Part shown: positions 13,371-55,044 of the stretch, in pieces | How the letters are laid out: each line of letters opens with the position of its first letter | Numbering within the stretch: position 1 is the first letter of the stretch | DNA from: an uncultured Rhodocyclaceae bacterium | GTDB lineage: Bacteria; Pseudomonadota; Gammaproteobacteria; Burkholderiales; Rhodocyclaceae | Assembly (NCBI GenBank): GCA_964469455.1 | Contig: CAYXZX010000002.1 | Span: 4,377 to 68,376, forward strand | DNA: 64,000 nucleotides | Reading direction: 5' to 3' | Position numbers and translations under genes: made by a program | Notes under the pieces: generated by a model | Seen by the model: only the letters and a program-made list of their open reading frames with translations | Told to the model about the DNA's origin: nothing | Database searches by the model: none

Positions 13371-13393
13371 ATCGTCCGATTGGACGTCGACCA
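13371..13393 (+). promoter_or_regulatory. candidate operator, copy A of a shared motif (ATCGTCCGATTGGACGTCGACCA; core TCGTC-N6-GACGT)
   Basis: Lies in the divergent intergenic region between the ACAD gene (-) and the amidohydrolase gene (+). Matches the copy at 55022-55044 at 16 of 23 positions, with the same N6 spacing. Confidence 0.4.
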
Positions 13394-13555
13394 ACTGAAA
13401 ACCCGACCGGAGAATCCTTCCAGAATGCCGACAGTCCAGTGGGGCGACTTGGCAGTTTCCCGTCGATCCCGAATCCGTCGCCGGTGCACTTTCGGCGTGA
13501 TTATTGTGGAGAGATGGAATAGGGCATCAACGATAACACTAGAGGAGTTGAGGCG

Positions 13556-14542
13556 ATGAGCAAGAAGAGCAAGAGAGACTACTTTGTTGCGTTGACGGAA
13601 TTTCACTTCATGAACTTGCAGACCATGAGTGAGATTACCTATTACCCCGGCATGCATCACTTCCATGATAGCGTCAATGGCGTCTTGCGAGCCTGGGCGG
13701 GCCGCGACCTTGACAGCGAGTGGCCCCAACCTATCGCCAGCGAACTCATCAAGTACATGGACCAGTCTGGCACGGATGTCGCGTTCTGTCTGCGGGAGCC
13801 AATGCTGGACATCACTGGTGGCACCGTCTCAATGTCCACCAATGGTTTCATGCTGCAACAGATTGCGCCTTACCCCGGGCGGATGTACCTCGAGGCCAAT
13901 GTAGGCCCGGTGATCCGGCGTGGCATCAAGCACGCGAACTGGGAACTCGAGTACCTGGTCAAGGAGCAGGGTGCCAAGCTCTGCAAGGTATATTCGCCTG
14001 AGGACGACGGTCCGCTCAACGACCGCCGCATGTGGCCTTTCTACGAGAAGGCATGCGACTTGGGCGTACCTCTCACCGTGCACACGGGCATGAGCTACGT
14101 TTGCCCGCAGCCGAGCGCGCACTGCGAAGTGAAGCAACTGGATGACATCATGCTCGACTTTCCGGAGCTGAAGATCATCGCCTATCACGCGGGTTGGCCG
14201 CAGTCGGAAGAGCTGATCGGGCTGTGCGGCAAGCACAAGAATCTTTACATGAGCCTCTCCGGGATCATCGGCTGGTACCAGCGGGCGCCATATCGCGGCT
14301 ATCACGCGATCGGCACCGCCTTGCAGTGGATGCCGGCCGACAAGATCGTGCTTGGATTCGATCTGCCATTCGATGACTTGAACCGCATCCTCGATTACAT
14401 CCGTGATCTCGACATGCCTGAGGAACTGCAGGAAAAGTGGGGTTATCCGCAAGTCACGGAAGACGACAAGGCAAAGATCCTTGGCCTCAACCTCGCAAGG
14501 TTGACAGGAATCGAGCCCACCAAGCGGGTCAAGCGCGGTTGA
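13556..14542 (+). CDS. amidohydrolase-2 (metal-dependent hydrolase/decarboxylase, PF04909-like) family protein
   Basis: 328 aa. Motifs PFYEKACDLGVPLTVHTG and IAYHAGWP are typical of the amidohydrolase_2 TIM barrel. GAGGAG RBS upstream of the ATG. Confidence 0.75.
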   Translation: MSKKSKRDYFVALTEFHFMNLQTMSEITYYPGMHHFHDSVNGVLRAWAGRDLDSEWPQPIASELIKYMDQSGTDVAFCLREPMLDITGGTVSMSTNGFMLQQIAPYPGRMYLEANVGPVIRRGIKHANWELEYLVKEQGAKLCKVYSPEDDGPLNDRRMWPFYEKACDLGVPLTVHTGMSYVCPQPSAHCEVKQLDDIMLDFPELKIIAYHAGWPQSEELIGLCGKHKNLYMSLSGIIGWYQRAPYRGYHAIGTALQWMPADKIVLGFDLPFDDLNRILDYIRDLDMPEELQEKWGYPQVTEDDKAKILGLNLARLTGIEPTKRVKRG

Positions 14543-14567
14543 TGTGCTTGGCTTGCCGGGAGAGTTC

Positions 14568-15329
14568 ATGACCATGAAGCGATTATCTGGCAAGGTGGCA
14601 CTCGTGACGGGTGCCGGTCAGGGCGTTGGGCAGGGCATCGCCACGGCACTAGCTGTGGAGGGTGCCCGGGTTGCAGTGGCGGGTCGAACGCTGGCGAAGC
14701 TTGACTCGACCTGCCGGGACATCAATGCCCGTGGTGGTTACGCGGTTCCGGTGGAATGCGATGTCAAGCGTCTCGATTCGCTCGAAAGCTGTGTCGAGAC
14801 CGTGGTCGAGCGTTTGGGTGGACTGAATATCCTGGTCAACAACGCACAGGAAGTTCCGACTGGCAGGCTTGATCAGGTTTCAGAGGACCGGCTGGAAGCC
14901 GGTTGGCAATCGGGACCACTCGCGACCTTCCGGCTGATGAAACTCTGCTATCCGTACCTGAAGGGGGATGGCAGCATCATCAATATGGCTAGTGCCGCAG
15001 GCAAGCGCTGGGACGCCACCGGGTACGGCTGTTACGGCGCCGTCAAGGAGGCTATTCGTCAGCTGACGCGTGCGGCAGCGTGCGAATGGGGCAAGGACAA
15101 TATTCGCACCAATGTTCTCTTGCCCCTAGCCGAATCAGCCGGGCTCAAAGGATGGACAGCGGCTCGTCCAGAGGAGGCGGCCGCGTACTTTTCGACGATC
15201 CCCATGAGGCGTGTAGGCGACTGCGAACTGGATATAGGCCGGTTCGTGGTTGCGCTCTGCTCCGAAGAATGTCGATATGTCAATGGACAGAGCATCGGAC
15301 TCGATGGTGGGCAAGCGTATTTAGGGTAA
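14568..15329 (+). CDS. SDR family oxidoreductase (the ORF could extend to a GTG at 14544)
   Basis: GKVALVTGAGQGVGQGIA, NNAQ and YGAVKEA motifs. Confidence 0.88.
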   Translation: MTMKRLSGKVALVTGAGQGVGQGIATALAVEGARVAVAGRTLAKLDSTCRDINARGGYAVPVECDVKRLDSLESCVETVVERLGGLNILVNNAQEVPTGRLDQVSEDRLEAGWQSGPLATFRLMKLCYPYLKGDGSIINMASAAGKRWDATGYGCYGAVKEAIRQLTRAAACEWGKDNIRTNVLLPLAESAGLKGWTAARPEEAAAYFSTIPMRRVGDCELDIGRFVVALCSEECRYVNGQSIGLDGGQAYLG

Positions 15330-52645: not shown

Positions 52646-53551
52646 TTACTGCGGAGGCAGCGCGTAGCCGTCTACCACCGGCTTGTGCGAGTCGTTGAAG
52701 TACTGGGACAGCGTCGTGTGCAGATCGGCCAGTTCCCACTTGCCGCCCTTGGGATTGTCGTAGAAAACGTCCAGGCGGGGGCGCTGCACGATGTTGACCC
52801 GGCCGCCCCAGACGACGAACAGTTCGCCGGAAATGTGCCCGGCTTCTGGCGAGGCAAGATACCCGACCAGCGGCGCGACGTTGGCGGGATCGAAGACGTC
52901 GAAACCGTCCTTCGGCGCCGCGAACAGGTGCGCATGCGGCATGTTTTCTGTCATGGCGGTACGCCCGCGCGGCAGGATGACGTTGCAGGTGACGCCAAGC
53001 TTGATCATCAGGGCGGCGACGCCGATGCTTAGGGCGGCGATGCCCGCCTTGGCCGGCGCATAGTTGGGCTGCCCCGGAGCAGCGAACAACATGGCCTCTG
53101 ACGCGGTGCTGATCAGGCGGCCATAGACGGGACCGGCCTTGGCTTTCTCTCGCCAGTACTGCGCGGCGTTGCGCATGTTCACGAAATGACCGCGCAGATG
53201 CACGCGCACCACGGAATCGAATTCGTCGTCGGTCATGCCGTAGATGGTCTTGTCGCGGGTGAAGCCGGCATTGTTGACCATGATGTTGACATCACCGAAG
53301 GCGTCCAGCGCCGCCTTGAAGGTCCTGCCCGCCGATTCGGTGTCGGCGCAGTCGCCGAGTGCGGCGATGGCTTCGCCACCGAAAGCCTTGATGTCGGCGA
53401 CCGTCTGGTGAGCCTTTTCGGCCGACGCCGGGAAATCGATGTCGTTGATGACCACACGCGCTCCCTGGCGCGCGAGCTGCATTGCTTCCTCGCGGCCAAG
53501 TCCCTGGCCCGCTCCCGTGACGATGGCCACCTTGCCTGTCAAGTCACCCAT
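52646..53551 (-). CDS. MFE-2/Hsd4A-type SDR, probable (3R)-hydroxyacyl-CoA dehydrogenase (301 aa)
   Basis: GKVAIVTGAGQGLGR, NNAGFTRDKTIYGMTDDEFDSVVRVHLRGHF (very like the multifunctional enzyme type 2 dehydrogenase domain) and YAPAKAGI. The long ORF-track extension to 54487 is antisense to the thiolase. Confidence 0.85.
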   Translation of the reverse strand: MGDLTGKVAIVTGAGQGLGREEAMQLARQGARVVINDIDFPASAEKAHQTVADIKAFGGEAIAALGDCADTESAGRTFKAALDAFGDVNIMVNNAGFTRDKTIYGMTDDEFDSVVRVHLRGHFVNMRNAAQYWREKAKAGPVYGRLISTASEAMLFAAPGQPNYAPAKAGIAALSIGVAALMIKLGVTCNVILPRGRTAMTENMPHAHLFAAPKDGFDVFDPANVAPLVGYLASPEAGHISGELFVVWGGRVNIVQRPRLDVFYDNPKGGKWELADLHTTLSQYFNDSHKPVVDGYALPPQ

Positions 53552-53583
53552 GTTGGATCCTTTCCTCGCCTTGAAGTGTTTTG

Positions 53584-54759
53584 TCAGATGCGTTCGATGA
53601 TGGTGCCGGTGCCGACGTTGGCGCCGCAACACATGGTGATGAGCGCCGTTGACTTGTCCTGACGCTCGAGTTCGTGCAGGGCGGTGCAGATCAGTCTGGC
53701 GCCGGTCGAGCCGACCGGGTGGCCGATCGCCATCGCACCGCCATTGACGTTGACCTTGCTCATGTCGGCGTCGAATACCTGGGCCCACGAAAGCACTACG
53801 GAGGCAAAGGCTTCGTTGATCTCGACGAGGTCGATATCGCTCATCTTCATGCCGCTGCGCTTGAACAGCCGCGTGGTGGCGTCGACCGGGCCGTCGAGTC
53901 CATAGTATGGATCGGCACCAACCACGCAATCGGTGATGATGCGGGCGCGCGCCTTGAGCCCGCGCTTCTTGGCCTCGGCGGCGCTCATCCAGAGAACCGC
54001 GGCCGCACCGTCGGAAACCTGCGAACTGCTGCCAGCGGTAATGATGCCTCCAGGCATCATCGGCTTGAGCGCGGCCAGGCCTTCCATTGTCGTGTCGCGC
54101 ATCCCCTGGTCGCGCGTGACCTTGCGCGTGGCGCCGGTGGGCTTGCCGTCTTCGCCGAGCACGGGCGCCTCGACGGCGAACGTCTCGCGGTCGAAGCGGC
54201 CTTCGTTCCAGGCAATCTTGGCCCGACGCTGGGACTCGCAGGCGAGGGCGTCGGTCATTTCGCGCGTCAGTCCCCGATTCTTGACGATGCGCTCCGCCAT
54301 CTCGAACTGGGTCTGTGCGGTATTCCAGGGCCAGCCCTCGGGAATGAAATAGCCGGGGCCGTGCATGACGTTGGCGCCCAGCGGCACGTGGCTCATCAGT
54401 TCCAGGCCGCAGGCAATGCCGACATCGATCGAGCCGGCGCCGACCAGCGAGGAAATGATGTGGTTGCAGGCCTGGGCGGAACCGCATTGTGCGTCGACCG
54501 TGAAGCCGCCGGTGCTGTAGTTCTTGCCCATCGACAGCCAGGTCTGGCGGACAATGTTGTTCGACTGTTCGCCGGCCTGGGTGACGCAGCCGCCGGCGAC
54601 CAGGTCGACGTCGGCGTAGTCAATTCCGCTCCGGCGGATCAGTTCCTCGAACGTGACCGACAACAGCTTCGTGGCATGCAGGCCGGACAGATCGCCGACA
54701 ATGGGCTTCCCGCGGCCGATGGGGGTTCTACAGGCTTCGACGATGACGGCTTCAGGCAT
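53584..54759 (-). CDS. thiolase (acetyl-CoA C-acyltransferase), FadA5/FadA6-like
   Basis: [17 protein letters not shown], the nucleophile context VDAQCGSAQ and C-terminal [23 protein letters not shown] upstream of the ATG at 54759. Confidence 0.92.
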
Positions 54760-55021
54760 CTTGGACTCCTTATCAATGAGTGCTGTTTCTAAACGTGGCA
54801 GGCATGGTACCGACTTGATCGACCACCGGCATGGAGGGGTCCGAAAGTGGGATTCCGCCGGAACCTCTGAGGGTCGGCGACGGGAAAATCGATGCAAACC
54901 AGTATCTTCGCTGGCGAGAGGGCATGTCATACCTCATTTGGGTGGTGTGTCGCACAGGGCGACTCGATACTCGGCGCAGTCGAGCGCGGCCGGCGAGGCC
55001 GTGATTCCTGCGCCAAGAGGT

Positions 55022-55044
55022 ATCGTCCGTTCAGACGAAGAGCC
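55022..55044 (+). promoter_or_regulatory. candidate operator, copy D of the shared motif (ATCGTCCGTTCAGACGAAGAGCC; core TCGTC-N6-GACGA)
   Basis: Lies in the 385-nt divergent region between the thiolase (-) and the SDR/OYE/ipdAB operon (+). 21 of 23 positions are identical to the copy at 39454-39476. Confidence 0.55.

Follow-up and report, generated by a model that had tools for sequence, protein, structure and literature searches.

The window analyzed here is a 64,000-nt stretch of contig CAYXZX010000002.1 from an uncultured Rhodocyclaceae bacterium. It carries a short palindromic DNA box that recurs upstream of the operons of a steroid-degradation island, together with a LuxR-type regulator gene that sits inside this cluster. 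Pfam and NCBIfam scans of the window proteins revealed an island rich in genes for the degradation of steroid rings and side chains, namely pairs of acyl-CoA dehydrogenases (ACADs), family-III CoA-transferases, short-chain dehydrogenases/reductases (SDRs), enoyl-CoA hydratases (ECHs), thiolases, and AMP-ligases. The window also encodes ipdA/ipdB-like subunits, a fusion of an old yellow enzyme (OYE) with MaoC, a xanthine-dehydrogenase-type molybdenum (Mo) hydroxylase, resistance-nodulation-division (RND) efflux, and a TonB-dependent receptor, the last two of which mark the source as Gram-negative. Only two regulator genes were found in the window, both on the minus strand: a gene for a LuxR/GerE-type protein of 396 residues (38091–39281), which has ipdAB-like genes, ACAD pairs, thiolases, SDRs, and OYE nearby, and a gene for an AraC-type protein (37078–38070), which lies directly downstream of luxR and is apparently co-transcribed with it. 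No gene of TetR, GntR, or IclR type and no TetR_N domain was detected among the window genes scanned.

A first-pass annotation of this DNA had described a motif with the palindromic core TCGTC-N6-GACGA in four intergenic regions and had read it as the operator of a single dimeric regulator. The four sequences it quoted are indeed present where it placed them, and its strong pair (starting at 39454 and 55022) is identical at 21 of 23 positions, with the arms as described. The core itself is real, but it was drawn one base too short in each arm: a mismatch search of the window showed that the symmetric unit is a 16-bp palindrome, TCGTCC-N4-GGACGA. With at most one mismatch, this pattern occurs four times in the window (starting at 13372, 39455, 55023, and 58969), compared with 0.44 copies expected from first-order Markov shuffles. 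All four copies lie on the plus strand and scored 19.8–24.5 with a position weight matrix (PWM) trained only on other genomes, whereas the next match in the window scored 12.9 and is coding. Box 1 (TCGTCCGATTGGACGT, 13372–13387, PWM 19.8) lies 5′ of an operon for amidohydrolase, SDR, CoA-transferase, and ACAD that starts at 13556. Box 2 (TCGTCCATTCAGACGA, 39455–39470, PWM 24.5) is located between luxR on the minus strand and an SDR-ACAD-ligase operon on the plus strand, and box 3 (TCGTCCGTTCAGACGA, 55023–55038, PWM 23.6) between a thiolase gene on the minus strand and an SDR-SDR-SnoaL-OYE/MaoC operon on the plus strand. Box 4 (TAGTCCCAACGGACGA, 58969–58984, PWM 21.0) precedes ipdA/ipdB.

Of the window, 2,898 nt (4.5%) are intergenic. 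All four strong boxes and a weak fifth candidate fall within this fraction, as do the four sites originally reported, and the best PWM score in the remaining 13 intergenic gaps is ≤2.2. The two copies that had been regarded as weaker fared differently. The one at 13371 corresponds to box 1 and is strong, whereas the one at 28855 is truly weak. This latter site (TCCCCCATTCGGACGA, 28856–28871, plus strand) departs from the pattern at two positions of the distal arm, and its PWM score of 11.2 is within the range of the shuffles, yet it is the fifth-best among the intergenic gaps; it is a possible box upstream of the Mo-hydroxylase operon that starts at 28992. The half-site that had been suspected in front of ipdA (58938–58948) is not the site, because the complete box 4, overlooked earlier, is located 30 bp downstream. 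A sixth candidate (41589–41604) was rejected, as it has three mismatches, a PWM score <5.4, and no −10 hexamer in register. The sequence TAGGCTACGTGGACGA (48508–48523, PWM 12.9) falls within the 3′ part of an AMP-ligase gene, ~500 bp 5′ of the TonB-receptor gene; with no −10 hexamer in register, this match is probably due to chance.

Each of the four strong boxes is followed, 22–23 nt downstream, by a −10-like hexamer facing the plus-strand operon. Box 1 is followed after 22 nt by GAGAAT (13410–13415; predicted transcription start site (TSS) at ~13422), and box 2 after 22 nt by TAGACT (39493–39498; predicted TSS at ~39505), with the start codon of the SDR gene at 39534. Likewise, TAGTCT (55061–55066; predicted TSS at ~55073) lies 22 nt past box 3, ahead of a likely ATG start at 55144, and GAGAAT (59008–59013; predicted TSS at ~59020) lies 23 nt past box 4, ahead of the ipdA start at 59076. 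When these hexamers are taken as the −10 elements, all four strong boxes span approximately −50 to −35, with the center at about −42.5. This is the geometry of class II activation, as by LuxR at the lux box, where the center is also near −42.5. The fixed 22-nt spacing to the −10 hexamer points to an activator site rather than to a repressor operator or a generic one. At 28856, the weak box is out of this register, with the −10-like GATAGTCC only 18–20 nt downstream. A consensus sigma-70 scan detected no promoter with two acceptable hexamers at 39200–39600 and none on the plus strand at 54900–55200. The lack of a canonical promoter is expected for activator-dependent promoters and proves nothing.

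The luxR-SDR intergenic region was then compared with those of close relatives. Two metagenome-assembled genomes in the species-genome scan, a Rhodocyclaceae bacterium and a "Betaproteobacteria bacterium", encode the regulator at 93%–94% identity. When the intergenic regions of loci L001 and L002 are aligned, three elements show no change (the box, the TAGACT hexamer, and a block with TATACT inside it), whereas the remaining sequence has diverged. The metagenomic locus L004 has the same gene order and a regulator that is 79% identical; it retains the box, the 22-nt distance, and TAGACT in an otherwise different spacer. TAGACT at the same spacing is also kept in L006 and L007. The conservation of the site in orthologous promoters, despite diverged flanks, is therefore borne out in L001, L002, and L004.

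The conserved block with TATACT (CAGTATAGACGAGGATGC, 39399–39416) is shared by the same three loci and holds TATACT on the minus strand (39405–39400), which is probably the −10 element of luxR. Relative to this presumed −10 element, box 2 lies at approximately −62 to −77. The autoregulation of luxR-araC that had been suggested on the basis of box 2 was not confirmed, since this box is positioned at about −70 from the presumed luxR promoter and serves the plus-strand operon. In three activated-sludge metatranscriptomes, the luxR RNA contigs stop at 39359–39382 and the SDR contigs begin at or beyond 39562. The luxR contigs ending at 39381/39382 fall 11–12 nt short of the TSS predicted from TATACT (near 39393 on the minus strand). 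No RNA contig spans 39392–39539 between the two divergent transcripts, although contigs are sparse in these data sets and cannot prove absence. This gap is consistent with a non-transcribed control region and with a luxR TSS near TATACT. The region 54300–60000 has almost no RNA coverage in public metatranscriptomes.

The candidate cognate regulator was characterized by Pfam searches, a family alignment, an AlphaFold model, and a fold search. Pfam assigned a GerE domain (PF00196) to residues 338–390 and found no second domain; in particular, no autoinducer-binding (Autoind_bind) domain was found. The protein therefore has a one-component layout with neither a receiver nor an autoinducer-binding domain, and members of the family are 374–426 residues long. 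The AlphaFold model, which is of moderate confidence (pLDDT 71), contains two α/β sensor-like domains of PAS/GAF-like type, a long linker helix, and a C-terminal helix-turn-helix (HTH). The fold matches of this model were tandem GAF/PAS modules and PAS-LuxR receptors such as VqmA, as well as RhlR, at low TM-scores of 0.2–0.39; VqmA chains ranked 20, 21, and 34. Sequence matches to solved structures (LiaR, VraR, GerE, and DosR) were confined to the HTH. The modeled architecture fits a one-component, ligand-gated, dimeric DNA-binding protein. In the family alignment, the recognition helix RKNT[IA]RAHLR[SA]IF is nearly invariant, which fits a conserved DNA target. NCBIfam contains no model for this regulator family.

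Next, the distribution of the box was determined in a set of comparison loci (~1 Mb) that were chosen solely because they encode a homologue of the LuxR-type regulator. The set consisted of 80 metagenomic loci, plasmid and chromid records, and named genomes; the PWM was trained without the window, scores of ≥15 were counted as hits, and regulators were clustered at 80% identity into 38 lineages. Homologues with 55%–65% identity occur in Sterolibacterium, Steroidobacter(aceae), Cupriavidus, Pandoraea, and Paraburkholderia, and the family is very common in Burkholderia and Paraburkholderia. Genes for homologues adjoin kshA, chsH/ltp2-type, kstD/hsaA-like, and steroid isomerase genes. The window-derived pattern with at most one mismatch matched 73 times in 924 kb, compared with ~4.5 matches expected, and the PWM matched 167 times, compared with 2.3 expected. 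Overall, the enrichment over shuffles was 16- to 70-fold. A scan of relatives had been suggested by the first-pass annotation, and it showed the boxes to be not only enriched but also, in annotated or gene-called records, intergenic and in front of steroid genes.

At least one PWM match was present in 47 of the 51 loci of ≥10 kb. When counted by lineage, the box accompanies the regulator in 33 of 38 cases, among both beta- and gammaproteobacteria and down to a regulator identity of 36%–41%. The five lineages with no box comprise three short contigs, one contig of 11.8 kb, and the pNL2 protein, which is 29% identical. Across 159 unique sites, −10-like hexamers were counted 111 times at a spacing of 22 nt from the box, 25 times at 21 nt, and 32 times at 23 nt, over a background of ~6 per position. 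The oriented consensus of the family is T[A/C]GTCC-N4-[G/A]GACGA-tG, with the promoter-distal arm being more degenerate. The TG is conserved where a −35 element would begin, and there is no other conservation of a −35 element. In many distant relatives, the box stands in class II register 5′ of the regulator gene itself or right after its stop codon, before the next operon.

Intergenic boxes in front of steroid genes were seen in genomes of different base composition. On a Vibrio alfacsensis plasmid with a GC fraction of 0.45, boxes scoring 26.2, 21.5, and 19.2 occupy intergenic gaps 5′ of ECH/SDR, ACAD, and electron transfer flavoprotein (ETF) genes, and in the low-GC Shewanella halifaxensis boxes scoring 27.0, 17.8, 15.9, and 15.2 are likewise intergenic, in front of genes of these kinds. 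Pseudomonas stutzeri has eight boxes, located 5′ of SDR, kshA, ETF, and BNR/MMPL genes. In Cupriavidus necator p1, boxes are found in intergenic gaps before steroid genes, and in Burkholderia cenocepacia a box with a score of 23.5 lies 5′ of an hsaA/kstD/kshB-like operon.

Some of the comparison loci show variations in the number and position of boxes. In two divergent promoter regions, two boxes occur at a distance of 45 bp, and each of them has a −10 hexamer of its own in register (L026, 3151/3196; L030, 2340/2385). In P. stutzeri, three boxes are clustered 5′ of the BNR/MMPL pair (L088, 20461/20621/20649). A box-like 16-mer, TCGTGCGAGAGGACGA (PWM 17.7), recurs in the 5′ part of the DUF2889 gene in loci of Steroidobacteraceae type (L014, 1419; L015, 5489; L091, 7283), which may reflect coincidence within coding sequence or mark an internal promoter.

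The closest functional parallel for the regulator is found in steroid-degrading Comamonas. According to published reports, TesR of strain TA441 and TeiR of strain ATCC 11996 are genetically defined positive regulators of LuxR type that are required for the induction of steroid clusters. One report assigns TeiR a polar membrane localization and kinase activity, with signaling by phosphorylation. For Chol1-type clusters, the gene layout scdG-scdD-scdJ-(two ORFs)-tesR has been described. The P. stutzeri homologue P0292 is 41% identical to the window regulator (E-value 1e-96), and its gene follows SDR, MaoC, and thiolase genes and two ORFs, which is the position of tesR. No Comamonas protein was among the matches listed in the protein searches with the regulator. 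On the basis of this positional orthology in P. stutzeri, the window regulator is best filed as a putative member of the TesR/TeiR family. No operator, consensus, or regulon definition for TesR/TeiR was found in the literature searched, to which the original TeiR papers did not belong; that the motif had not been recognized as a published operator thus agrees with our search.

The in silico data demonstrate that the sites exist, are non-random and intergenic, keep a constant distance to a −10-like hexamer, and are found together with the regulator family. From these data we consider it likely that the box is the operator of the adjacent TesR/TeiR-type LuxR regulator, which would bind it as a dimer and activate the steroid operons in a class II manner. 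The proposal that one dimeric regulator uses a shared operator, with the LuxR-type protein as the candidate, is supported by the co-occurrence in 33 of 38 lineages and by the near-invariant recognition helix. The interpretation first put forward thus appears essentially right, and it can be sharpened to a predicted class II activator box of a TesR-like steroid regulator of the LuxR family. In the proposed mechanism, the tandem PAS/GAF-like region at the N-terminus would be switched on, presumably by a steroid-derived ligand, and the dimer would bind TCGTCC-N4-GGACGA through its predicted C-terminal HTH. The dimer, bound at approximately −50 to −35, would then recruit RNA polymerase to promoters that have no good −35 element. 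This would lead to co-induction of at least four plus-strand operons, starting at 13556, 39534, 55144, and 59076, and probably also of the Mo-hydroxylase operon (28992). We infer that the LuxR-type protein is the one that binds and that it activates rather than represses, with the TSS positions predicted and the ligand presumed.

A broader reading is also probable, though held with less assurance: the box would be the DNA target of the TesR/TeiR family as a whole, whose members would be direct, ligand-gated class II activators and not only membrane kinases, and it would define a single steroid regulon across beta- and gammaproteobacteria. Should this hold, the regulon would span clusters of the Comamonas, Pseudomonas/Shewanella/Vibrio, Burkholderia/Cupriavidus, and Rhodocyclaceae/Steroidobacteraceae types. 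It would also include uncharacterized members, such as the Mo-hydroxylase, DUF2889, TonB-receptor, and BNR/MMPL genes.

Several observations speak against these readings or restrict them. Both the −10 hexamers and the TSSs are predicted, and the consensus scan finds no canonical sigma-70 promoter at the box promoters. Because the PWM was seeded by the window pattern and trained on the loci that it scored, there is some circularity in the enrichment, although the 73 matches against ~4.5 were already obtained with the raw pattern. The site at 28856 is statistically marginal. The link to the TesR/TeiR family is based on a positional orthologue and not on the TesR/TeiR sequence, and a simple one-component DNA-binding activator is not what one would readily expect from the description of TeiR as a membrane kinase. 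In addition, Steroidobacter denitrificans has only degenerate boxes (with GGGCGA arms) near its homologue, whose recognition helix is identical, and no box was found within ±8 kb of the 29%-identical pNL2 homologue. Since box sites are missing or degenerate at the pNL2 and S. denitrificans loci, the box is not universal across the widest superfamily. The sphingomonad branch represented by pNL2 probably recognizes another sequence, and S. denitrificans may have a lineage-specific weak or variant box. Finally, the box overlaps the expected −35 position, so it could serve as a repressor operator.

The S. denitrificans promoters orthologous to those of the window (L003, 11131–11146 and 13191–13206) have TAGCCT and CATAGT at the same 22-nt distance, with GGGCGA and GGGCGT as their proximal arms. 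On the Novosphingobium aromaticivorans plasmid pNL2 (L086, 7980–9125), the LuxR homologue adjoins genes for a luciferase-like monooxygenase (LLM) and a steroid delta-isomerase. This LuxR/LLM pair has been discussed in the literature for progesterone degradation.

If the box were a repressor operator, the LuxR-type protein or another dimeric regulator would cover the −35 region until an inducer releases it, as with KstR and KstR2. Repression also has precedents, as actinobacterial steroid catabolism is under repressors and several repressors were reported in C. testosteroni. However, the spacing to the −10 hexamer is near-invariant (22 ± 1 nt in >150 sites), which is typical of activators that contact the polymerase, whereas the distances of repressor operators are usually more variable. 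Moreover, promoters with no recognizable −35 element should be weak unaided, the characterized relatives TesR and TeiR are positive regulators needed for induction, and no gene of TetR, GntR, or IclR type is present among the scanned window genes. We therefore regard repression at this box as unlikely.

Slightly less probable still is that another protein, either the AraC-type protein or an unlinked global regulator, binds the box and that the LuxR gene is merely a member of its regulon. Binding of the box by the LuxR-type protein is itself a prediction, the AraC gene apparently shares a transcript with luxR, and the many boxes that directly flank the LuxR gene would also be expected if this gene were only a target. 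In contrast, AraC homologues are confined to the six closest loci and do not accompany the box beyond them, whereas the box is found in 33 of 38 LuxR lineages. The AraC-type protein, which had been named as a candidate regulator alongside the LuxR-type protein, was rejected as the conserved partner of the box because only the closest relatives carry its gene. The annotated loci L087, L088, L089, and L090 share no further regulator gene, and the conservation of the box is paralleled by that of the LuxR-family recognition helix. A 16-bp site with two-fold symmetry also suits a dimer of GerE-type HTH domains better than the tandem HTH of AraC-type proteins.

Very improbable is an origin other than a protein site (an RNA hairpin acting as attenuator or terminator, a repeat of the repetitive extragenic palindrome or miniature inverted-repeat transposable element type, or chance), for although the palindrome can form a stem of 5–6 bp and some copies elsewhere directly follow the stop codon of the regulator gene, the folding energies are ordinary (z-scores of −0.1 to −1.85), the arm changes are not compensatory (positions 2/15 are A/G in 78 sites, C/G in 48, and A/T in 8), no Rfam match, T-tract, or metatranscriptome contig covering the box at 39455 was found, the flanks diverge while box and −10 hexamer are conserved in fixed register, and chance is countered by the enrichment over shuffles. 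An RNA hairpin or known RNA family was accordingly rejected.

With the box read as the target of a TesR/TeiR-type activator, the system can be compared with characterized ones. Like TesR and TeiR, the window regulator is a protein of ~390 residues with a C-terminal GerE/LuxR-type HTH and a non-receiver N-terminal region, encoded in a steroid cluster. Positive control of several operons would be another shared feature, as predicted from the geometry of the box. The box data point to direct promoter binding, whereas TeiR was described as a polar, membrane-associated kinase. The cluster of this Rhodocyclaceae-like sludge bacterium also differs from the Comamonas tes/scd layout by its Mo hydroxylase and many CoA-transferases.

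The lux box bound by Vibrio fischeri LuxR, and likewise the site of TraR, is a dyad near −42.5 over a poor −35 element, an arrangement that the present one would match, given the predicted −10 hexamers. At the lux box, a dimer with GerE-type HTH domains is bound and transcription is activated. The window box is, however, 16 bp long rather than 18–20 bp and unrelated in sequence. Unlike LuxR proteins that respond to acyl-homoserine lactones, the window regulator has tandem PAS/GAF-like domains in place of an autoinducer-binding domain and is associated with catabolism, not quorum sensing. VqmA, a PAS-LuxR receptor, resembles it in combining, within one protein, a PAS-type ligand domain and a LuxR-type HTH with a palindromic target. 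The window regulator differs from VqmA in its two sensor domains on a long helix and its length of ~390 residues, and the two share no detectable sequence homology outside the HTH.

As with KstR and KstR2, palindromic boxes are repeated before many steroid operons, including ipdAB and fadE-type genes. KstR and KstR2 are, in contrast, TetR repressors that work by de-repression, and no TetR gene is present among the window genes scanned. Their boxes, TnnAACnnGTTnnA and AnCAAGnnCTTGnT, differ in sequence from the window box.

The kind of element is well known, but no earlier description appears to exist of this box, of how widely it is conserved, or of its link to a TesR-type regulator. The control of steroid degradation in proteobacteria is far less understood than the KstR/KstR2 control in actinobacteria. 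A conserved box in fixed register would allow the regulon to be read directly from genomes and metagenomes, and it would flag the Mo-hydroxylase, DUF2889, TonB-receptor, BNR/MMPL, and LLM genes as candidate members. It also offers a concrete model that can be tested, in which a protein described as a kinase activates transcription directly. The promoter and the sensor could further serve as parts for biosensors of steroids or bile acids in wastewater organisms.

The operons behind the boxes were delimited by shared strand and short gaps, and all are on the plus strand. The presumed operon behind box 1 (13556–26464) encodes, by Pfam, an amidohydrolase_2 protein, SDR, family-III CoA-transferases, ACADs, a DUF2889 protein, an LLM, and an ECH. 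Behind the weak box at 28856, the presumed operon (28992–36559) encodes the FAD, FeS, and Mo subunits of the xanthine-dehydrogenase-type hydroxylase, an LLM, a CoA-transferase, and a major facilitator superfamily transporter. Box 2 precedes a presumed operon (39534–52610) for an SDR, two ACADs, an AMP-ligase, two further ACADs, a second AMP-ligase, the TonB-dependent receptor, and a DUF2889 protein. The presumed operon of box 3 (55144–58933) consists of genes for two SDRs, a SnoaL-like protein, and the OYE-MaoC fusion, the last of which occupies 57395–58933. Box 4 is followed by a presumed operon (59076–63521) for the ipdA/ipdB-like CoA-transferase subunits, a lipid-transfer thiolase, and a protein similar to nitronate monooxygenase/FabK.

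Six paralogous family-III CoA-transferases and three LLMs are encoded in the island (15518–35239 and beyond, by Pfam), and the two DUF2889 genes are located at 21315–22190 and 51426–52610. The three-subunit Mo hydroxylase (28992–32864) is accompanied in the steroid island by a separate CoxG-like gene (10229–10876), whereas at locus L022 the CoxG and Mo-hydroxylase genes share one operon behind a strong box. The Mo hydroxylase and CoxG of the window may resemble the Mo enzymes of pathways that degrade steroids anaerobically. An ORF of 170 codons (36579–37091, minus strand) with no Pfam or NCBIfam match is located 3′ of the AraC gene; it is kept together with the AraC gene in close relatives only. 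The window sequence, probed with positions 38900–40400, was found to be identical in at least 20 metagenome runs from sludge, wastewater, and compost between 2014 and 2024, and the source organism is therefore a common wastewater bacterium.

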